The notes beneath the pieces were generated by a model. That model saw only the letters and a program-made list of their open reading frames with translations, had not been told where the DNA came from and did not search any database. Positions 424-49,500 of a DNA stretch of 49,500 nt are shown here, piece by piece. A program made the position numbers and the translations under genes. Numbering within the stretch: position 1 is the stretch's first letter; each line of letters starts with the position of its first letter. The stretch spans positions 1 to 49,500 of IMG/VR virus record IMGVR_UViG_3300048599_000494; one strand, written 5' to 3'. The stretch is from a virus (lineage: Duplodnaviria; Caudoviricetes).

Positions 424-1392
424 TCACGCGGTCGCGCTCTTGGGGAGCGGTTCGATGTCGGAGAGCCGAAGGGCCTGGGCGGCCTCTTGGGCACGGGAGA
501 ACGAGAGCCGGGCGTAGTGCTCGGTCATGTTGACGTGCGAATGCCCGAGCAGCGCGGAGGACGCGTCGAGCCCCCGGCGATCGCGGATGACCGTGGCCAC
601 GGCGTGGCGGAGCTGGTGGGGCGTCCACACCTCGACGCCGGCCCGCTCGCACGCGCGGCGGATGGACGCCCGCACGACGTTCGGGGCGATGGAGCGGCGC
701 CGGCCGCGGCCAGCGCGGGGGAAGATGGGGTCACGGGGGCACAGCGGGCGCTGCCACCTGCCGAGCACCACCATGGCGTCGGGGTTGAGCGGGATCTCCC
801 GGGGCTTGCCGAGGTGGGCCGTCTTGTGCTGCCGGCACACCAGCCGGTACGCGCCGGCCTGGTCCTCGAGGACGTCCCGGTTCTCGGCCAGGAGCACCTC
901 GCTCAGCCGGGCGCCGGTGAGCATGAGCACCCGGCACACGTCCCCGACGGCGCCGGGGAGGAACGCCAGGGCGGCCCGAACCTGGTCGAGCTCGGCGGGA
1001 CGGACGGGATCGGTCTCGCGGGCCGCGGAGCGGTGCGGGGGGAGAGACCGGACGCAGGAGAGCTCGGCGAGCACGGCCGCGGGGAGCGAGTACTCCTCGA
1101 CCGCCCACCGCGCGAATCGGCGGACGCGGGCAAGCGACTTGTTGATGTACACCCGGGAGAGGTCATCCGCGACAAGGTCGTTCATCCACCCCCGGACGGT
1201 GACGCGGTCGAGGTCGACCAGACGGACGCGGCCCCCCGCGTAGCGCAGGAGCGAGCTGAGGGTGCTGGCGAGATTGAGGTGCTCGCGCGTCGGGGTCCCG
1301 TCCGCGTGGCGGTAGTACACCCTCGCGTGAGCGATGTACAAGGGGACCAGGTCCGCCAGGGTGGCGGGCGTGCGGGCAGCGTTCTGGCGCAT
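424..1392 (-). CDS. int: Tyrosine recombinase / phage integrase
   Basis: Catalytic motifs TGARLSE (R), HKT (K), HQLRH (HxxR), LLGH and TEHY (Y). Confidence 0.95.
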   Translation of the reverse strand: MRQNAARTPATLADLVPLYIAHARVYYRHADGTPTREHLNLASTLSSLLRYAGGRVRLVDLDRVTVRGWMNDLVADDLSRVYINKSLARVRRFARWAVEEYSLPAAVLAELSCVRSLPPHRSAARETDPVRPAELDQVRAALAFLPGAVGDVCRVLMLTGARLSEVLLAENRDVLEDQAGAYRLVCRQHKTAHLGKPREIPLNPDAMVVLGRWQRPLCPRDPIFPRAGRGRRRSIAPNVVRASIRRACERAGVEVWTPHQLRHAVATVIRDRRGLDASSALLGHSHVNMTEHYARLSFSRAQEAAQALRLSDIEPLPKSATA

Positions 1393-1517
1393 TGCCAGGA
1401 GCTCCGGGGTGGACCCTTGTAGATTCGCGGTCCCCCGACCGGGTCCGGTTCGGGGGCAGGCGTCCGGGGTATCAAGCCGGACGCCGGGAGATTAACACCC
1501 ACTTCGGCTGTTTGCAA
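1393..1517 (-). promoter_or_regulatory. Integrase/early-operon promoter and structured 5' leader
   Basis: TTGCAA(1517-1512)-17bp-TAATCT(1494-1489) with extended TG. Hairpins at 1460-1484 and 1432-1456 are conserved in copy 2. Confidence 0.6.
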
Positions 1518-1547
1518 GGCTGGCCCTGAAAAAGGCCCGCTCGGGTC

Positions 1548-2126
1548 TCACCGCTCCCCGCGCACCTCGATGTTCAGCCCGTAGTGCTTGAAGGGCCACG
1601 GCCCGCCGGAGCGGTTCAGGACGATCGCGTGGTACCGGATGCCATCGTCGATGGCGTCGCTGAGCCACGCCGCCGTGTCGGCACCCAGGTACCCGAGCGC
1701 CTGGCCCCGGTGATTGAGCACCAGCACCGCGCACGGATCGACGGGATTATCCGGCTCCTGGACGAGCTGAAGGCGATCGCCCGCCCGGCACCGCCGCACG
1801 AACGCTTGCCGACGCGACCCGTCACGATTTTGGAACTGCACCCCTCGGACCCGCGTGCGGAACCTGAGGTAGTCGCCCTCAAAGCGACCCCGCCGGCTCG
1901 ACTGCCCGGGCTGAGGCCGGGCCGCAGAACCGGACCCGAAACTCATCCCGATGCTCGCCAACGCCAGAATTACCAGCACGGATAAGCCGATCCCACCCCA
2001 GAAGTGGAACGGAGACGCCGGCGGCCAGGATGCCACGGCGACGAGGAGCGTCACCATGCACCAGAGCCAGATGACGGTGATACACCCACCGCGAGCAACA
2101 CTCGCGCCGCACCCTCGATTGCCCAT
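1548..2126 (-). CDS. Membrane-anchored HIRAN-domain protein (cargo/moron)
   Basis: Two N-terminal hydrophobic helices; HIRAN motifs VRGVQF, EPDNPVDPCAV and LGYL. Confidence 0.85.
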   Translation of the reverse strand: MGNRGCGASVARGGCITVIWLWCMVTLLVAVASWPPASPFHFWGGIGLSVLVILALASIGMSFGSGSAARPQPGQSSRRGRFEGDYLRFRTRVRGVQFQNRDGSRRQAFVRRCRAGDRLQLVQEPDNPVDPCAVLVLNHRGQALGYLGADTAAWLSDAIDDGIRYHAIVLNRSGGPWPFKHYGLNIEVRGER

Positions 2127-2150
2127 GTCCCGGCTCCCACTCGCGCGCTG

Positions 2151-2284
2151 AAGAAAAGGCCGCCAGCGCCCGGGTGATAAGTCCGGGCCTGACGGCGTGG
2201 CCTTGCTTGCGGTCTACGGCCGCTCCCGGTTGGCCCCGGGACCCGGCGGGGGGAGCTCCTGGGAAGGAACCCTCGCCGGGGAAA
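2151..2284 (-). ncRNA. Putative structured RNA/terminator trailer 3' of the tRNA fragment
   Basis: Four consecutive hairpins ending in a U-tract. Copy 2 shows loop changes and an extra compensating C-G pair. Confidence 0.5.
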
Positions 2285-2330
2285 GCGGGCGGCGGGATTT
2301 GAACCCGCGACGATCAGCTTGGAAGGCTGA
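2285..2330 (-). pseudogene. tRNA-Gly(TCC) 3' half, att core
   Basis: TCAGC-CTTCCAA-GCTGA anticodon arm, GCGGG-TTCAAAT-CCCGC T arm and CGCCCGC acceptor strand; no normal D arm. Confidence 0.9.
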
Positions 2331-2414
2331 GTCATCGCCCCCTTCTGGGGCCGCCGGGGCTATCCCCGGGGGGTCTCCGACGCCCGATACTTGCGCATTC
2401 ATGGCGCGGGTCAA

Positions 2415-2525: not shown

Positions 2526-4058
2526 ATGGCCAAGAAACCACGCACCGCCGCCCCGTCCCCGACACCGCCCGCCCCCGCCGCCACCGAGCGGATCGCCACG
2601 GACATCCTCCCCCTGGCCGTGCCGATCGATTCCCTGCAGCTGGACCCGGCGAACCTCCGCACCCACGGGCCCCGGTCTATCGAGGGCGTGGCCAAGAGCC
2701 TCGAGCGATTCGGGCAGACAAAGCCGATCGTGGTCGACGCCGCCGGCGTGGTGATCGCCGGGAACGGGACCCTCGAGGCCGCCCGCCGGCTTGGCTGGAC
2801 CCGCCTGGCCGTGGTCCGGGCGGACCTGGTGGGCGAGGAGCGGACCGCCTACGCCATCGCGGACAACCGGACCGCCGAGCTGTCCGCCTGGGATGAGGAC
2901 GCGCTCCGGGCCGCCCTGGGCTCGATGGAACCGCCCGCCCGCCTGGCCGCGGGGTACACCGACGCCGAGCTGGCCCAGGTCATGGACGATCCGAAGCGGC
3001 CGATGGCGGAGGACGAAGTCCCGGCGATCCTCCCGGGCCACGTCGCGCTCCCCGGGGAGATCTGGCAGCTGGGGCACCACCGCATCATGTGCGGAAGCTC
3101 CACGAGCCTCGAGGACGTCCACCGCCTGATGGACGGGGAGAAGGCCGCGCTGTGCGCCACCGACCCGCCGTACCTCGTCGACTACACCGGCGAGCGGCCC
3201 GGGAACACCGGGAAAGACTGGTCTGGGACCTACAACGAAGTCGAGATCACCGACGCGGCCGACTTCTTCCGAGGTCTCTTTGCCGCGGTTCTGGAAGTGC
3301 TCGCGCCCCACGCCGCGATCTACTGCTGGCACGCGCACAAGCGGCTGGGCGTGATTCAGACGGTTTGGGCCGAGCTCGGGATCATCGACCACCAACAGCT
3401 CGTCTGGATCAAGCCATCGCCGCTCTTTGGTCCGTCGCTCTACCAGTTCCAGCACGAACCCTGTGTTGTCGGGTGGAGAGAAGGAAGCAAGCCGAGCCAC
3501 GGGAACACCCAGTCCAGCACGGTCTGGATCGTCCCCTGGGACCCGTACACCACGGTGGTGCACGCCGAGGACGCCGACGTCTGGGTCCTGGATTGGGAGG
3601 GCAAGAGCCGGCCGGTGAAGAACGAGCACCCCACGCAAAAGCCCCTGGAGATCTTCGCCCGCCCCATCCGCAAGCACACCCAGCCCGGCGCCCTGGTGTT
3701 CGAGCCGTTCTCCGGCTCCGGCTCCCAGCTCATTGCGGCGCACCGCCTGGGCCGCCGGTGCCGGGCCATGGAGCTCTCGCCAGTGTTCGTCGACGTCGCC
3801 ATCCGCCGTTGGCAGAACCTCACCGGGGAGCCCGCCCGCCTGCTCACGCCGGACGGGCCGGGAATGACCTGGGAAGAGGCCCGGGCCTCGAGGGGCCTAC
3901 AGACCACTCCGGCGCCGGCGGCCGCGGAGAAGGCCCCGTCGCCCCGCGGCCGCAAAAAGAAAAACCCCCCGGCGCCCGCTTCCGCGGACGCCGGGGGGGA
4001 CCCCCGCCGAGCCCTTGCGGGCGCCGGCGGGGATCCTGGAGTGCCGGCCAGTCATTGA
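2526..4058 (+). CDS. ParB/Srx N-domain fused to an N6/N4 DNA methyltransferase (beta class)
   Basis: FGQTKPIVVD..IAGNG..ADNR ParB-like segment; TDPPY, HPTQKP and FEPFSGSGS motifs. Confidence 0.92.
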   Translation: MAKKPRTAAPSPTPPAPAATERIATDILPLAVPIDSLQLDPANLRTHGPRSIEGVAKSLERFGQTKPIVVDAAGVVIAGNGTLEAARRLGWTRLAVVRADLVGEERTAYAIADNRTAELSAWDEDALRAALGSMEPPARLAAGYTDAELAQVMDDPKRPMAEDEVPAILPGHVALPGEIWQLGHHRIMCGSSTSLEDVHRLMDGEKAALCATDPPYLVDYTGERPGNTGKDWSGTYNEVEITDAADFFRGLFAAVLEVLAPHAAIYCWHAHKRLGVIQTVWAELGIIDHQQLVWIKPSPLFGPSLYQFQHEPCVVGWREGSKPSHGNTQSSTVWIVPWDPYTTVVHAEDADVWVLDWEGKSRPVKNEHPTQKPLEIFARPIRKHTQPGALVFEPFSGSGSQLIAAHRLGRRCRAMELSPVFVDVAIRRWQNLTGEPARLLTPDGPGMTWEEARASRGLQTTPAPAAAEKAPSPRGRKKKNPPAPASADAGGDPRRALAGAGGDPGVPASH

Positions 4059-20681: not shown

Positions 20682-20744
20682 GTCCGACCTCCGTGTCGAA
20701 AGAGCTGGGGAACTGCGCCGACACTAGACCCCGCGCGGGCGCGG

Positions 20745-35582: not shown

Positions 35583-36149
35583 CTAGACCGCCGGCTCCCG
35601 CGGGCCAATGAGCTCCAGCTGGGACGCCCCGGACTTCTTCGACTTCTTCCCCTTGCCCCGGCGGAGCTGCTCGAGGCACGCCGCGGCGGAGAAGTCGTCC
35701 GCCTGGTTGAGGAGACCGACCGACACGTGGGCGCCCGGATCCGCCCCGGGCTCGACGTAGAACTTCCGCACCGAGAGCGACACCACCTGGGCGTCGTCCA
35801 CCCAGAACCCCATCTCCGTCATGACGTCCAGGATGGGCTTGGCGAAGTTGTCGACGTCGCCGGACCCGAGGTTGTCGGCGTGCATGAGATCAGCCGGCCA
35901 CCCGGGCCCGGCCATCTGCTTCTCTCGCTCGAGGGCGATCGCGATCTCGACCTTCACCGGGCACCGGAGCGGGGCCGCCGGCACCTTGGCCGTCGCGAAC
36001 AGCCGGATCGCCTTCCGCCAGGGCTCGATGCGCGAGGGCGTGTAGATATGGGCGAACGCCTTGCCCGCCTTCGACCGGCGCACCTGGGTGGCGGGCCGGG
36101 GCTGGGGGAGCGGGGTTCCGTGCACGATGAACGAGATCCAGGTCTTCAC
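35583..36149 (-). CDS. rusA: RusA-family Holliday junction resolvase
   Basis: GTPLPQPRP, DVDNFAKPILD and WVDDAQV motifs. Confidence 0.9.
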   Translation of the reverse strand: MKTWISFIVHGTPLPQPRPATQVRRSKAGKAFAHIYTPSRIEPWRKAIRLFATAKVPAAPLRCPVKVEIAIALEREKQMAGPGWPADLMHADNLGSGDVDNFAKPILDVMTEMGFWVDDAQVVSLSVRKFYVEPGADPGAHVSVGLLNQADDFSAAACLEQLRRGKGKKSKKSGASQLELIGPREPAV

Positions 36150-37072
36150 GCGACTCCCCCCGCCATACTTGGCCCGTTGATAATCAACACCTCTGGAGCC
36201 TCCATCGGCCGCGCCCCGCGGCCGCTCATCGCGTGAAGGTTTTTCTGCATGGTCTTCTCCACGAAGGTCCACCCCCGATAGAGCTCGCGGTAGCGCGGGC
36301 TGTCGTACGCCGAGACCACGATGCGGGCGTGCCGGTACGCGCGTAGGGCGTCCGCGAGCCTGGCGTGGTCGTCCTGGGCACCGAAGAGTCCGGCGCCGGC
36401 GTGCGTGAACTCGTGCAGGTACCGCCCCCCGCCGCCGCCGGACGTCGCCACCCCGTCCTCAGAGAGATTGGACCGACTCTCCGCGGCGTAGGGCGGGTCG
36501 GCATAGATGGCTGTCTCGGGGCAGTCCTCGAAGCGGTCGATGATCTCGAACGCGTCCCGCTGAAGTACGACCGCGTTCAACAGGCGCCGGTGCCAGGCCG
36601 GCATGCTCTCGACCGCGTTCCGAAACCGCTGGGTCGGAGAACCCCCATTCTTGGTCCAGCGTACCGCGATCTGGTAGTCCGGACGGTCCGTGCCGGCGGT
36701 GCCGTTCCGACCCATCCACGAGGCGATGAAGAACCAATAGGCCCGCTCGAGCGCCGGCTCCTCCGGCACCAAGGGCTCAGACTCGAGGAACGCCTGGGCG
36801 TCCTCGAGGAGCCCTTCGCACATCACCACACGCTGGAGCCGCTCGTACAGCATCTCCGCCCACCCGACCTCCTGGATGATCCGGGCGAGGTTGGTGATGT
36901 CCCCGTGCAAGTCGTTGACCGTCTCCTTTTGGGCCGGGGGCTTGGCCAGGATGACCGACAGCGCCCCTGCGAACGGTTCAAAGTACTGCGTGTGCTCGCC
37001 CAGCTCTGCGACGATCTCGGGGGCGAGCGTCCGTTTTCCCCCGAACCACGGCGCCAACGACCTTATCTTCAT
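36146..37072 (-). CDS. DNA adenine methyltransferase, Dam/D12 class
   Basis: PWFGGK, EPFAG, VNDL and YADPPY motifs. Confidence 0.93.
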   Translation of the reverse strand: MKIRSLAPWFGGKRTLAPEIVAELGEHTQYFEPFAGALSVILAKPPAQKETVNDLHGDITNLARIIQEVGWAEMLYERLQRVVMCEGLLEDAQAFLESEPLVPEEPALERAYWFFIASWMGRNGTAGTDRPDYQIAVRWTKNGGSPTQRFRNAVESMPAWHRRLLNAVVLQRDAFEIIDRFEDCPETAIYADPPYAAESRSNLSEDGVATSGGGGGRYLHEFTHAGAGLFGAQDDHARLADALRAYRHARIVVSAYDSPRYRELYRGWTFVEKTMQKNLHAMSGRGARPMEAPEVLIINGPSMAGGVA

Positions 37073-38414: not shown

Positions 38415-40250
38415 TCAGTCGAGCTGCTCGTCCTGATCCCCCACCGGCCCGTCGTACCCGGTGGCTGGCCTCTTCTTCCCCGGCTTCTTCGCGGGAGCAA
38501 TCCCGCCGGCTCGCGCGAGCTCCGACGGAGCCGCTTCGGGGTCGCGCTCGATCTTCGTGGCCCTGGGCATGAAGTCCGCCACCGTGGGCCGGGGCCCGAG
38601 CTCCGCCTCGACATCGATGCCGAAGGCCTCGCACACCGCCTCGGCCAGGCCCGAGCCGCCGTCGGCGTGGGAGTGGAAGAGCCCGAACTTCCGGTGGCAC
38701 CCCTTCTCGAGCGCGACCAAATGCTCGAGGGACGGCTCCGTCACGAGCTTGAGCAGTCCGCGGAACTCGGCGCCGGGGAGGATCTTCTCGGGCTTGGCGT
38801 TGTACGCCTCGAGCTTCCGCACCAGCGGGTGGTCCCGGAAGATCTGGTACATCGCCCACGCGCCCGGCACCTTGGCCATGGCCGCGGCGAGGGCGGGCTC
38901 CAGCTTCTTGGCCCGCGCCATGAGCGCGTCCCCGAGCTCCCGCCGGGCCTTCAGCTTGGGGTCCTCCTGGAAGCGGTAGGGCTCGACCTTGACCGCCTCG
39001 TCCTTCCGCGCCGGCTTCATCGCCTCCCTGGCCGCCTCGACCACCTGGAAGCGGTCGATGAACGCCGGGACCTCGACGCCGAGCTTGGCGACCGAGGAGA
39101 GGGCCAGGTCCTTCGGCCGCTCCTTTTTCGGGAGCTCCTTCACCGCCTTCGCCACCCGGTGCCCGGCCGACTTCACCGCTCGCTTCGTGGCGGCGGCCTT
39201 GGACGCGAAGCACCCCTTGTTGGTGCACACCCCGGCCTTGGGCTCCTTGTGGCCGCGATCACCGTACCGGCTCTTGGACGACTCGAGGGTGAGGGCGAAC
39301 TCCGGCTCGCCGGACTCGAAGAGCCCGGGGTTGTTGGCAGAGTTGTGCGGGCACTCGACGCACGCCGGCTGCCCGGCGAACGGGACGGTGAGGCTCCACG
39401 GGACCTGGTGCAGGGAGAGCAGCCGCTGGGACACCAGCTCCCGCAGCTCGTCGATGCCCAGGGGGAACTCGCGGAAGTAGTCGTCGCCCTTGGGATCCCC
39501 GGCGGCCGCGGCGTCGGCCAGGTGGGCCCGCTGCTCGGGGTCGGCCACCTTGGCGATCTCGCGGGCGTGGAGCAGTGGAAGCCGACCCGTCGCCACCAGC
39601 TCCCGCTCCTTGGGGCCGAACCGGGCGAGGTACATCCGGTCCCGGATCCACTGCTCGGGCTTGCCGAAGTACTCCGCGGCCTTGCGCACCGCCTGGCGGC
39701 GGGCCTCGACCTGCTGAGCGACGGGGAGCTGCAGGTTCGGCTGCTCGCCCTGGGGGGGCTCGGCCGTGGGCCCCAGCGCCGCCTGGGCCTCGTAGATGTC
39801 GATCACGTGGGCGACCACGAGCGCCTCGTCAACGGGCGAGAGCTCCTTCCGCTGCATGTTCTCGATGCCGCGGAGCACCATCAGGTCGGCTTCGGACTCG
39901 GTGTACATGACCGACGCGTCGATGTCCTCCCACCCGAGCAGCTTGGCCGCCTCGAGCCGGCGCCGGCCAAACACCAGGCGGTAGTCCTGTCCGTTCGCCT
40001 CGATCGCCTCGACGCCGATCGGTTGCTGGAGCCCGTGGATGGCCATGGACCGCGCCAGCTCCTCGACGTTCGCCGCGGTCGGATCCTCCAGCCGGTTCGG
40101 GGAGTCGTCCACGGCGATCCTCGCGATGGGGATCCGCACCCACAGCCTCGACCGCCGGGCGTGGTCGAGCGTCTCGATCTTCGCCGGCGCCGCCGGCTTC
40201 CCCGCGTCCTTCGCCCTGGACTTCTTCGACTTCGTCGCTGTAGCAACCAT
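38415..40250 (-). CDS. ParB/Spo0J-like protein with Cys-rich middle region
   Basis: HGLQQPI, LVFGRRRLEAA, ENMQRKELSPVDEA and CVECP..CTNKGCF. Confidence 0.88.
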   Translation of the reverse strand: MVATATKSKKSRAKDAGKPAAPAKIETLDHARRSRLWVRIPIARIAVDDSPNRLEDPTAANVEELARSMAIHGLQQPIGVEAIEANGQDYRLVFGRRRLEAAKLLGWEDIDASVMYTESEADLMVLRGIENMQRKELSPVDEALVVAHVIDIYEAQAALGPTAEPPQGEQPNLQLPVAQQVEARRQAVRKAAEYFGKPEQWIRDRMYLARFGPKERELVATGRLPLLHAREIAKVADPEQRAHLADAAAAGDPKGDDYFREFPLGIDELRELVSQRLLSLHQVPWSLTVPFAGQPACVECPHNSANNPGLFESGEPEFALTLESSKSRYGDRGHKEPKAGVCTNKGCFASKAAATKRAVKSAGHRVAKAVKELPKKERPKDLALSSVAKLGVEVPAFIDRFQVVEAAREAMKPARKDEAVKVEPYRFQEDPKLKARRELGDALMARAKKLEPALAAAMAKVPGAWAMYQIFRDHPLVRKLEAYNAKPEKILPGAEFRGLLKLVTEPSLEHLVALEKGCHRKFGLFHSHADGGSGLAEAVCEAFGIDVEAELGPRPTVADFMPRATKIERDPEAAPSELARAGGIAPAKKPGKKRPATGYDGPVGDQDEQLD

Positions 40251-40261
40251 CCTGGTATCCT

Positions 40262-40741
40262 TTACCACCCCCGCTCCGCCGCGATCTGGCGCAGGTCATC
40301 CGCCGCGGCGTGGTACTCCGCCGGGAGGTCTGCGCCGGGAATGTCGAACAGCCCCCGCTGTCCCCGGACCTTCACCGTGGGAAGCGCCCTCGCGCCATAC
40401 GCCGGGTGACACCACGGGCCCGTGGCCCAGCGGAACCCGCCCGGGGCCCCTGTCCACGGCGTTCCCTGCTCCCACCGGAAAGCCCCGCCCATCCACACGA
40501 TGCCGATCACCTTCCCCATGCGTGCCTTCATCGCGTGCATCGCCAGGACGGGCGACGCCGGGCACTCGGCCCATCGCTCGTGCGCCCACTGGCAGATCTC
40601 CGGTGTGAACCACGCGAGGTTGAGCCCCGCCTGGATGAGCACCGGCCCGACGTAGCCGAGCGACCGCTTCCGGTTCTCGATCCTCTTCCCGCCGAAGATG
40701 ATGGCGGAGCCCATGGGCTCGCACACGGTGAGGCACTTCAT
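40262..40741 (-). CDS. ASCH-domain protein
   Basis: LTVCEP..IIFGGKRIENR..GPVLIQAG..RGQRGLF. Confidence 0.85.
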   Translation of the reverse strand: MKCLTVCEPMGSAIIFGGKRIENRKRSLGYVGPVLIQAGLNLAWFTPEICQWAHERWAECPASPVLAMHAMKARMGKVIGIVWMGGAFRWEQGTPWTGAPGGFRWATGPWCHPAYGARALPTVKVRGQRGLFDIPGADLPAEYHAAADDLRQIAAERGW

Positions 40742-47322: not shown

Positions 47323-47384
47323 GGGAACCTCAGGTGAAGGGCCGCGGCGGCAACGCACCGCCGCGGCCCCTGGGGCGAAGTCGT

Positions 47385-48353
47385 TCAGGCAGTCGCGCTC
47401 TTGGGGAGCGGTTCGATGTCGGAGAGCCGAAGGGCCTGGGCGGCCTCTTGGGCGCGGGAGAACGAGAGCCGGGCGTAGTGCTCGGTCATGTTGACGTGCG
47501 AATGCCCGAGCAGCGCGGAGGACGCGTCGAGGCCCTGGCGATCGCGGATGACCGTGGCCACGGCGTGGCGGAGCTGGTGCGGCGTCCACACCTCGACGCC
47601 GGCCCGCTCGCACGCGCGGCGGATGGACGCCCGCACGACGTTCGGGGCCATAGAGCGGCGCCGGCCGCGGCCCGCGCGGGGGAAGATGGGGTCACGCGGG
47701 CACAGCGGGCGCTGCCACCTGCCGAGCACCACCATGGCGTCCTGGTTGAGCGGGATCTCCCGGGGCTTGCCGAGGTGGGCCGTCTTGTGCTGCCGGCACA
47801 CCAGCCGGTATGCGCCGGCCTGGTCCTCGAGGACGTCCCGGTTCTCCGCCAGGAGCACCTCGCTCAGCCGGGCGCCGGTGAGCATGAGCACCCGGCACAC
47901 GTCCCCGACGGCGCCGGGGAGGAACGCCAGGGCGGCCCGGACCTGGTCGAGCTCCGCGGGGCGGACGGGCTGGGTCTCGCGGGCGGCGGAGCGGTGCGGG
48001 GGCAGAGACCGGACGCAGGAGAGCTCGGCCAGGACGGCCGCGGGGAGCGAGTACTCCTCGACCGCCCACCGCGCGAAGCGGCGGACGCGGGCAAGCGACT
48101 TGTTGATGTACACGCGGGAGAGGTCATCCGCGACAAGGTCGTTCATCCACCCCCGGACGGTGACGCGGTCGAGGTCCACGAGACGGACGCAGCCCCCCGC
48201 GTATCGCAGGAGCGAGCTGAGGGTGCTGGCGAGATTGAGGTGCTCGCGCGTCGGGGTCCCATCCGCGTGGCGGTAGTACACCCTCGCGTGAGCGATGTAC
48301 AAGGGGACCAGGTCCGCCAAGGTGGCGGGCGTGCGGGCAGCGTTCTGGCGCAT
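47385..48353 (-). CDS. int: Tyrosine recombinase / phage integrase
   Basis: Same R-K-HxxR-H-Y motifs as 424-1392. Confidence 0.95.
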   Translation of the reverse strand: MRQNAARTPATLADLVPLYIAHARVYYRHADGTPTREHLNLASTLSSLLRYAGGCVRLVDLDRVTVRGWMNDLVADDLSRVYINKSLARVRRFARWAVEEYSLPAAVLAELSCVRSLPPHRSAARETQPVRPAELDQVRAALAFLPGAVGDVCRVLMLTGARLSEVLLAENRDVLEDQAGAYRLVCRQHKTAHLGKPREIPLNQDAMVVLGRWQRPLCPRDPIFPRAGRGRRRSMAPNVVRASIRRACERAGVEVWTPHQLRHAVATVIRDRQGLDASSALLGHSHVNMTEHYARLSFSRAQEAAQALRLSDIEPLPKSATA

Positions 48354-48477
48354 TGCCAGGAGCTCCGGGTTGGACCCGTGGATGAATCGCTGGTCCCGAC
48401 CGGGTCCTGGTCGGGGGCGGCGTCCGGTTTCTCAGGCCGGACGCGGAGACGTTACCACCGTCTTCGGACGGATGCAA
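48354..48477 (-). promoter_or_regulatory. Integrase/early-operon promoter and structured leader, copy 2
   Basis: TTGCAT(48477-48472)-17bp-TAACGT(48454-48449); same stems as copy 1 with diverged loop and linkers. Confidence 0.6.
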
Positions 48478-48502: not shown

Positions 48503-49219
48503 CTACGGCGCGACCATTTCTTCCGGCTTGGTCGGCACGAAGCGATGCCAATCGTCCGGGAGCGGTAGCCTCGGGGCCGGGACGACGGTAAGCGTCCTTT
48601 GGGTTCCGACCCCGTCGGCGATCTCGAACTCGACCGGGACGTCCTGCCGCACCTTGGCAAGCTGCTGGAAGTACTTCATCACGTCGCCGCCGAGCCGGAC
48701 GCCGCCGATCGCCAACACCCGGTCGTTGATGTGCAGACCGGCCGTCGCCACCGGCGAACCCGGGGTGACATCGGACACCAGCAGCGTCCCGCGATCGACC
48801 AGCAGCCCGAGATAAGCCGGAGCCGGGGCACATGCCACAGCGGTGACCACCTCGTAGCCCGTGGGCGAGGTGTACCCAAACCCCGGGGCGTACTGGGTGA
48901 AGTACCCACCGACCTCGGTCTTCGAGTCGACCACCGACACGAACTCCGCCCCGAGCTTGGCGCCCTCCCTCGACAGGTAGTTCCGGACGGCCCATGCATC
49001 CATCCCATCCATCCCGACCAGACGGATCTGCGCAATCGGAATGCCGGGCACGGGGCTCGGGCCGGTCGTTTTATCGAACACCGCCACCCGTTCAAGAGGC
49101 GTCGGCGATTTGACGACATCCACGGGCATTGCAGCAACGTCGCAACGAAGGACCGTGCATGCCGGAAGAGCGAGCAGAATCGACGCGAGGGCGATGGCGA
49201 GGGTGAAGTGCGTTCTCAA
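48503..49219 (-). CDS. PDZ-domain lipoprotein (cargo/moron)
   Basis: AAGGAG RBS, TTG start, LPA-C lipobox; YLGL..VSDVTPGSPVATAGL..DRVLAIGG PDZ motif. Confidence 0.82.
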   Translation of the reverse strand: MRTHFTLAIALASILLALPACTVLRCDVAAMPVDVVKSPTPLERVAVFDKTTGPSPVPGIPIAQIRLVGMDGMDAWAVRNYLSREGAKLGAEFVSVVDSKTEVGGYFTQYAPGFGYTSPTGYEVVTAVACAPAPAYLGLLVDRGTLLVSDVTPGSPVATAGLHINDRVLAIGGVRLGGDVMKYFQQLAKVRQDVPVEFEIADGVGTQRTLTVVPAPRLPLPDDWHRFVPTKPEEMVAP

Positions 49220-49240
49220 GGGGGGCGTCTCCTTGACCAA

Positions 49241-49376
49241 TAAAAGGCCGCCAGCGCCCCGGGTGAGAAATCCGGGGCCTGACGGCGTGGCCTTGCTTGC
49301 GGTCATCTGGCCGCTCCCGGTTTGGCCCCGGGACCCGGCGGGGGGAGCTCCTGGGAAGGAACCCTCGCCGGGAAAA
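49241..49376 (-). ncRNA. Putative structured RNA/terminator trailer, copy 2
   Basis: Homologue of 2151-2284. Confidence 0.5.
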
Positions 49377-49422
49377 GCGGGCGGCGGGATTTGAACCCGC
49401 GACGATCAGCTTGGAAGGCTGA
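49377..49422 (-). pseudogene. tRNA-Gly(TCC) 3' half, att core
   Basis: Identical to 2285-2330. Confidence 0.9.
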
Positions 49423-49500
49423 GTCATCGCCCCCTTCTGGGGCCGCCGGGGCTATCCCCGGGGGGTCTCCGACGCCCGATACTTGCGCATTCATGGCGCG
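49423..49500. mobile_element. Start of a further related prophage copy (attP-like arm)
   Basis: Identical to 2331-2408. It is phage arm sequence, not the 5' half of a host tRNA. Confidence 0.7.

Follow-up and report, generated by a model that had tools for sequence, protein, structure and literature searches.

A putative antisense RNA next to a tRNA attachment site covaries with three sites in the leader of a phage integrase

We identified a predicted structured RNA, encoded beside a tRNA attachment (att) site on the phage side, that would act as an antisense RNA by binding the leader of the integrase (Int) transcript at three sites and blocking Int translation after integration; we consider this reading likely. 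Its sequence-based part is established, i.e. the layout of the locus, the covariation at three sites, the position of one of these (site A) over the start region and, in two genomes, the location of RNA and target on separate contigs. Across ten independent loci, three stretches of the RNA covary with three leader sites (A, B and C) in antiparallel order, and this comparison identifies RNA and leader as a predicted, covarying RNA-RNA recognition system that is part of a conserved system.

The window, i.e. the whole stretch of 49.5 kb that was analysed, is a viral record in full, from a Planctomycete-type phage. Genes for terminase, portal, capsid and tail lie in one unit of ~47 kb, and on either side of this unit is a copy of the integration region. 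The two copies are similar (95.5% identity over 1.5 kb), and the order on the minus strand in either copy is phage end, tRNA-Gly 3' fragment, trailer, cargo gene, promoter-like site, leader and integrase. Features of the window given below are on this strand unless stated otherwise. A contig from an independent run spans the same junction, and the record may be either a tandem array or an assembly of two variants. Because the tRNA is a fragment without the D arm, both junctions are attP-like or tandem; neither copy has a full tRNA in front of the trailer. Searches among viral contigs found no close relative, and two pattern scans returned zero matches.

The att core (2284..2331 in copy 1, 49376..49423 in copy 2) is the 3' part of a tRNA-Gly(TCC), i.e. 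the anticodon arm, the T arm and the acceptor 3' strand. The original prediction had recognised a tRNA-Gly fragment here, correctly: it is the 3' part of the tRNA, the D arm is missing and the Rfam score is 28.1 bits against a gathering score of 29. The sequence 5' of the core in copy 1 is phage-derived, and the homologues have a full tRNA at that place. In both copies this phage sequence (2331-2355 and 49423-49447) can re-close an acceptor-like stem, to the point that ARAGORN calls a tRNA, and the attP state may therefore give rise to a tRNA-like precursor. The predicted trailer RNA of copy 1 (2153..2283, ~130 nt) lies 3' of the core and is predicted to fold into H1 (2280-2242), H2 (2241-2224), an H3 region (2223-2209) and a terminator-like hairpin (2202-2158) followed by a U tract. 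None of 200 shuffles was as stable (z = -3.13). Site A (2252..2262) lies at the top of H1, site B (GUAGA, 2213..2217) is predicted to be single-stranded and site C (UAUCA, 2175..2179) occupies the loop of the terminator-like hairpin. The trailer RNA of copy 2 (49242..49375) carries A at 49354-49344, B (GAUGA) at 49307-49303 and C (UUUCUCA) at 49270-49264. The terminator rule of our scan picked up part of the copy 2 hairpin only and missed that of copy 1. Comparison of the window with a close relative gave no changes in 1360-1519 and 2071-2299 and 21 substitutions in 1520-2070.

The short tyrosine integrase (322 aa; 424..1392 in copy 1, 47385..48353 in copy 2, 98% identical) is 40-100 aa shorter at the N-terminus than its long relatives, the missing segment presumably being the arm-binding domain, and its nearest named relative is from a Phycisphaerales bacterium. 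No Xis family match came up in three scans of window ORFs (40, 67 and 141). The integrase leader of copy 1 (1393..1487, ~95 nt) is separate from the trailer RNA and led by its own promoter-like site (1489..1517, TTGCAA-17-TAATCT); it consists of hairpin 1 (1484-1460) with C' at 1474-1470, hairpin 2, B' at 1423-1419 and A' at 1405-1395, the last containing GGAG. In copy 2 the promoter-like site (TTGCAT-17-TAACGT) and leader together span 48354..48477, with C' (UGAGAAA) at 48434-48428, B' (UCAUC) at 48385-48381 and A' at 48366-48356, and the predicted leader fold buries the start region. A strict promoter scan found no promoters; the loose pattern TTG-N3-(16-18)-YA-N3-T was present in 11/12 leaders and in 8/988 genome windows. 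In both copies leader GGGUCC (1411-1416) can pair in cis with GGACCC (1441-1446). A strong 15-bp hairpin with a weak T tail separates int from the ORF that follows (375-410 and 47336-47371, minus strand) and is a possible attenuator or processing site.

Between the RNA and the leader lies an exchangeable cargo gene, encoding a HIRAN domain protein in copy 1 (1548..2126) and a PDZ domain protein in copy 2 (48503..49306). Most homologues lack the copy 1 gene. The start of the PDZ ORF as called falls inside the RNA, and its true start is likely to be further on. The cargo slot is bounded by the terminator-like hairpin and the int promoter, and its HIRAN and PDZ occupants are unrelated; inserts like the window cargo come after the trailer in two further loci, L237 and L256.

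The original prediction had proposed that the trailer RNA pairs with two leader sites, and the six words on which it relied are all present where it placed them. CCAGGAGCTCC and its complement occur within the 49.5 kb at four places only, i.e. site A and its target in the two copies. From the window alone the complementarity signal is modest: an 11-nt run was reached by chance in 24/1,776 genome windows and 19/1,000 leader shuffles, and a colinear 11+8 pair in 14/1,776 genome windows and 7/1,000 shuffles. With accessibility taken into account (duplex energy plus opening cost), site 1, which is our site A, has an energy of -9.5 kcal/mol, reached in 2/404 genome windows. Two-strand co-folding did not favour the pair (-7.3 kcal/mol, 94/296 windows as good, best structure without site A); since bases within a closed hairpin are barred from pairing in this model, it was replaced by the duplex energy plus opening cost. 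Plain duplex folding of whole RNAs was uninformative. Of the two proposed contacts, the first stands, as it covaries across loci and is energetically favourable, and the second does not. Site 2 (CCGGGUCC, 2239..2246) is buried in stems, with an unpaired probability of 0-0.13 in the RNA, and nine homologues gave no excess of pairing there (42,874/100,000 permutations as good); it was rejected as a conserved contact and is probably incidental. Chance accounts for this match, and is favoured more generally by the 71% GC content, by the palindromic core and by the occurrence of foreign matches of 9-10 nt. The targets had also been described as kept in copy 2 while neighbouring linker bases diverged; the words are indeed present in copy 2, but the diverged linker includes a compensatory pairing site. 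Conservation of the sites in copy 2 is by itself weak evidence, because the copies are 95.5% identical over 1.5 kb.

Loci of the short-integrase clade were drawn from metagenome and genome scans and from five overlapping sets of whole genomes, with 301-401 genomes per set. Trailer and leader were both present in ten independent loci (window copy 1, L001, L081, L232, L233, L235, L237, L245, G220 and G827), which came mostly from Phycisphaerales-family genomes; copy 2 of the window was kept outside the statistics and L002 is a duplicate of L001. The trailers are diverged (53% mean column identity over nine aligned), and in eight of the loci the trailer lies directly behind a full host tRNA, seven times a tRNA-Gly and once a tRNA-Ala. 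The structured RNA trailing a tRNA, with complementarity over the integrase start region, that had been proposed from one sequence is supported, and the complementarity covaries. Two loci without a recoverable trailer were left out (L082 in G002, where the contig end cuts the trailer, and L215 in G725), and neither assembly holds the full tRNA copy. L219 was kept outside the counts since its leader precedes another ORF, as were the short integrases without a nearby tRNA (L189, L191, L204, L220, L223, L224 and L228).

Site A pairs the first trailer hairpin with the start region, at positions between -18 and +5 across loci. The words at this site in the ten RNAs are CCAGGAGCUCC, CUCGCAG, GAACA, GUCCUGGC, UCUCGG, CGUCAUGGG, UCCUUGGGUC, UGUGGUCCGC, CCUCGA and UUGUUCCGAG; every one of these words has its complement in the leader of the same locus. 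Over eight loci the cognate sum was reached by 2/40,320 permutations. The site A rule was noted from the first three loci, before the others, and validation was carried out on the seven later loci, for which the true assignment was the best of 5,040 (1/5,040). The own match was the strict row maximum in 7/10 loci; a foreign leader outscored it in L001 (5 nt) and L235 (6 nt). The start codons of L233 and L237 were picked with the match in view, and without these two loci the own match was the strict maximum in all five other validation rows. As a control we used 33 tRNA-adjacent long-integrase loci, in which the mean cognate and non-cognate matches at site A did not differ (4.45 vs 4.46; 10,732/20,000 permutations). 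A conserved CCU-loop-AGG apex, considered early, was true of the first three loci only and was rejected.

The original prediction had noted site A among the conserved leader partners and had missed B and C, two loop contacts that change jointly between the window copies. Site C pairs a late trailer hairpin loop, usually that of the terminator-like hairpin, with the loop of the first leader hairpin (4-7 nt; 1/200,000 permutations, validation 11/5,040). These values were obtained with the leader hairpin cut at 32 nt; a 40-nt cut mis-called L245 and L235 and gave 49/40,320 (validation 9/120). In L245 the score comes from a middle loop rather than the terminator loop. At site C, a YUNR motif was seen in 11/11 RNA loops and 9/11 leader loops; these loops were hand-picked, so the motif is not counted as evidence. 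Site B pairs the middle of the trailer with the leader around -27 (79/100,000 permutations, validation 29/5,040), and is absent from L237 (3 nt). The B and C contacts are 4-7 nt long in most loci, and their windows were fixed after the loci had been viewed. An automatic chain of three loops was equalled by 0/200,000 permutations, and the accessibility-aware energy by 0/100,000 (validation 8/5,040); own pairs beat shuffled pairings across the ten independent loci. By this energy the best contact was A in 7/10 loci, C in two and B in one.

The two copies in the window behave as two alleles of the same system. At B both sides change, from GUAGA/UCUAC in copy 1 to GAUGA/UCAUC in copy 2, and at C both sides change from UAUCA/UGAUA to UUUCUCA/UGAGAAA; crossing the B partners between copies keeps 3/5 pairs. 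B and C are predicted to be largely unpaired in RNA and leader alike. In two genomes (G220 and G827) the integrase adjoins an inverted tRNA fragment without a trailer, and a search with the shared tRNA core led to a full tRNA on another contig, followed by the trailer. Because the shared core is an exact match of 39 nt, the two contigs are presumably the ends of one element. Used as out-of-sample tests, the RNAs matched their own leaders at A/B/C with 6/5/5 nt in G220 and 10/10/4 nt in G827, and since RNA and target are on separate contigs in these genomes, they cannot belong to one transcript and would have to pair in trans. In its sequence, the trailer RNA thus shows the hallmark of trans-encoded antisense RNAs in general, i.e. 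complementarity that covaries with a target encoded elsewhere.

These results bear on the reading in which the matches are due to chance, DNA-level inverted repeats, protein sites or cis folding of a single read-through transcript. The letters vary between loci while the complementarity stays, the sites lie in loops and the long-integrase control is flat, all of which argue against chance, despite the base composition and foreign matches described above. Cis folding is opposed by the two genomes in which RNA and leader are on separate contigs at opposite element ends, and in the window by the terminator-like hairpin and cargo gene that separate them. This reading is largely refuted, and we regard it as highly improbable.

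If the trailer RNA is an antisense repressor of Int, the following sequence of events can be proposed. Integration would put the trailer RNA behind the host tRNA promoter and so lead to its transcription. The RNA would then be released or stabilised, probably by RNase E, or the unprocessed precursor would be active; these routes are likelier than simple 3' processing because host profile hits over the cut-off were 0/5 for RNase Z and 5/5 for RNase E/G. Recognition would begin with kissing loops at C and B, after which A would pair across the start region and block the initiation of Int translation, i.e. repress rather than activate. The level of Int may then set the direction of recombination, as suggested by integrases without the long N-terminal segment and by the scans in which Xis was not found, and the element would be locked in by an RNA that integration turns on. 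For simple integrases, PMC3694055 describes Int expression level as controlling directionality, and PMC8138268 places Xis only with arm-binding integrases; an RNA lock after integration fits both. Through its variable loops, each element would have a specificity of its own. A promoter-like site in the window upstream of the att core, TTGACC-16-AAGTAT, could drive the RNA before integration and counts against strict integration dependence. On the other side of this argument, L001 has a hairpin with a T run, read by eye, ahead of the att core.

The effect could instead be reversed or positive, with the leader acting on the trailer (e.g. on its termination) or with binding opening the leader and activating Int. 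The position of site C in the loop of a terminator-like hairpin would suit the former, and the copy 2 leader, predicted to bury its own start region, would suit the latter. Against a reversal, the strongest contact is over the start region in 7/10 loci, and G220 and G827 have no int gene behind the trailer for read-through to reach. We think such an effect unlikely.

Repression of Int by the trailer RNA is also compatible with a further role, in which the same pairing would give immunity: with the first ORF blocked, translation would be uncoupled or transcription would terminate early, silencing the co-oriented replication genes behind int, in the manner of P4 CI and P1 C4. Such protein-free immunity is possible, and we put it forward tentatively. 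Family scans of the ORFs found no recognisable CI/Cro switch in the window (no CI-, Cro- or Xis-family match among 40, 67 and 141 window ORFs), although most early ORFs are without a family, so that a divergent repressor could escape. Int is first in a long co-oriented run with an HTH_36 replication-initiator-like gene, and a co-oriented ORF lies close behind int in L081 and, by eye, in L245, L001 and L082. Rho scored over the cut-off in 4/5 hosts, and the L237 match is to a coupled leader ORF of 46 codons, with a stop codon that overlaps the start of int. The arguments on the other side come from the same regions: hairpins with T-rich tails lie behind int in L233, L186 and L237, as does the 15-bp hairpin in the window, the leaders lack a U-tract terminator, and the L081 element spans only ~2.7 kb by appearance, with host-type genes beyond.

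Several known regulators resemble the putative trailer/leader system in part. PMC5320573 describes C4 of P1/P7 as a multi-stem RNA whose loops pair with separate targets, one over a ribosome-binding site, and whose variable loops set specificity. The trailer RNA resembles C4 in that its loops match separate sites, one over the ribosome-binding site, a likeness seen here at the level of sequence. C4, however, lies inside the transcript it controls and is cut from it by RNase P, whereas the window RNA lies at the attachment site behind a tRNA, with a terminator-like hairpin and a promoter-like site between it and its target and with different contigs in G220 and G827. It further differs from C4 in its integrase-leader target, its three contacts and its lack of an Rfam match: no C4 or other family matched the trailer RNA in the window at the gathering score, and the C4 covariance model had no match at E<=5 in 1300-2450, nor at E<=1 in 11 homologous loci. 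No icd/ant-like genes were found. For P4 CI and Gifsy-1 IsrK, PMC4825925 describes an antisense RNA that pairs with two non-contiguous leader sites and maintains lysogeny. P4 CI is cut from the transcript of its targets seqA and seqC and causes termination. P4 CI thus shares a transcript with its targets, which flank it in one leader, whereas all three targets here are in a separate leader, and trailer RNA and leader form distinct units that two assemblies place on different contigs. The predicted system would work like C4 and CI and belongs to neither, because Rfam gave no match and RNA and target are encoded at different places.

Mycobacteriophages of the BPs type have an integration-dependent immunity in which attP lies inside a repressor gene and control is by proteolysis; a simple Int acts without Xis, its level setting direction (PMC3694055). 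The likeness is that the regulator is altered by the act of integration; what integration would yield here is an RNA from the host tRNA promoter. Int lacks the N-terminal 40-100 aa of its long relatives and no Xis family match was found, so that an arm-binding domain and Xis may both be absent. No repressor family was found at the att site or elsewhere in the window, so that the BPs feature of attP inside a repressor gene was not seen. Lambda sib resembles the present system in tying RNA-level control of int to the integration state and differs in that it works in cis, through the 3' end of the int message. ColE1 RNA I likewise uses three stem-loops for recognition but is a perfect cis-antisense transcript. 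A search of literature titles and the starts of abstracts, in a collection from which most subscription journals are absent, found no description of a tRNA-trailer antisense RNA against an integrase leader, nor a paper on phage regulation in this phylum.

Temperate elements with simple integrases must stop excision after insertion, and the solutions known to us use proteins, i.e. Xis, proteolysis tags or repressors. tRNA genes are the commonest kind of insertion site, and this family of loci would offer an RNA solution to excision control that is coupled to them. More speculatively, a class of integrative elements might sense integration by RNA alone: insertion into a tRNA gene would put a three-loop, lock-and-key RNA under the host tRNA promoter, this RNA would replace both Xis/arm-site control and a protein repressor, and its rapidly changing loops would define immunity groups, so that near-identical phages could share one tRNA site; we hold this with considerable doubt. 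The RNA pair has no Rfam entry, and the natural allele series, with two alleles in one contig, makes binding, specificity and integration dependence directly testable by reporters. If the arrangement is general, tRNA 3' trailers at attL merit a systematic search, and orthogonal RNA/leader pairs would be usable as translation switches.

Some loci show variations on the layout. In L081 (5950-8600) the RNA pair occurs in an apparently minimal element with an integrase, a weak HTH gene and few ORFs; host-type genes resume after ~2.7 kb, and the RNA/leader system is probably not confined to full phages. In L237 (1331-1471) site A is directed at the start of the 46-codon leader ORF, the stop codon of which shares bases with the integrase ATG, and the trailer region is longer, with apparent repeated hairpin units. 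L219 (607-905, in G497) has a short trailer behind a tRNA-Gly(TCC), of which 12 nt are complementary to the first hairpin of the leader that follows (6-9 nt with foreign leaders). Behind this leader comes an ORF of ~200 aa, and a short integrase overlaps with it at its start. The window itself carries a phage-promoter-like repeat family, TTGAC-N17-TAG-N2-T, at 20708, 25995, 34500 and 35533 (minus strand), and a -35 similar to it lies upstream of the att core, near 2410. It also encodes two DNA methyltransferases, of which one is ParB-like in its N-terminal part, and another protein that is ParB-like (2526-4058, plus strand; 36146-37072 and 38415-40268, minus strand).
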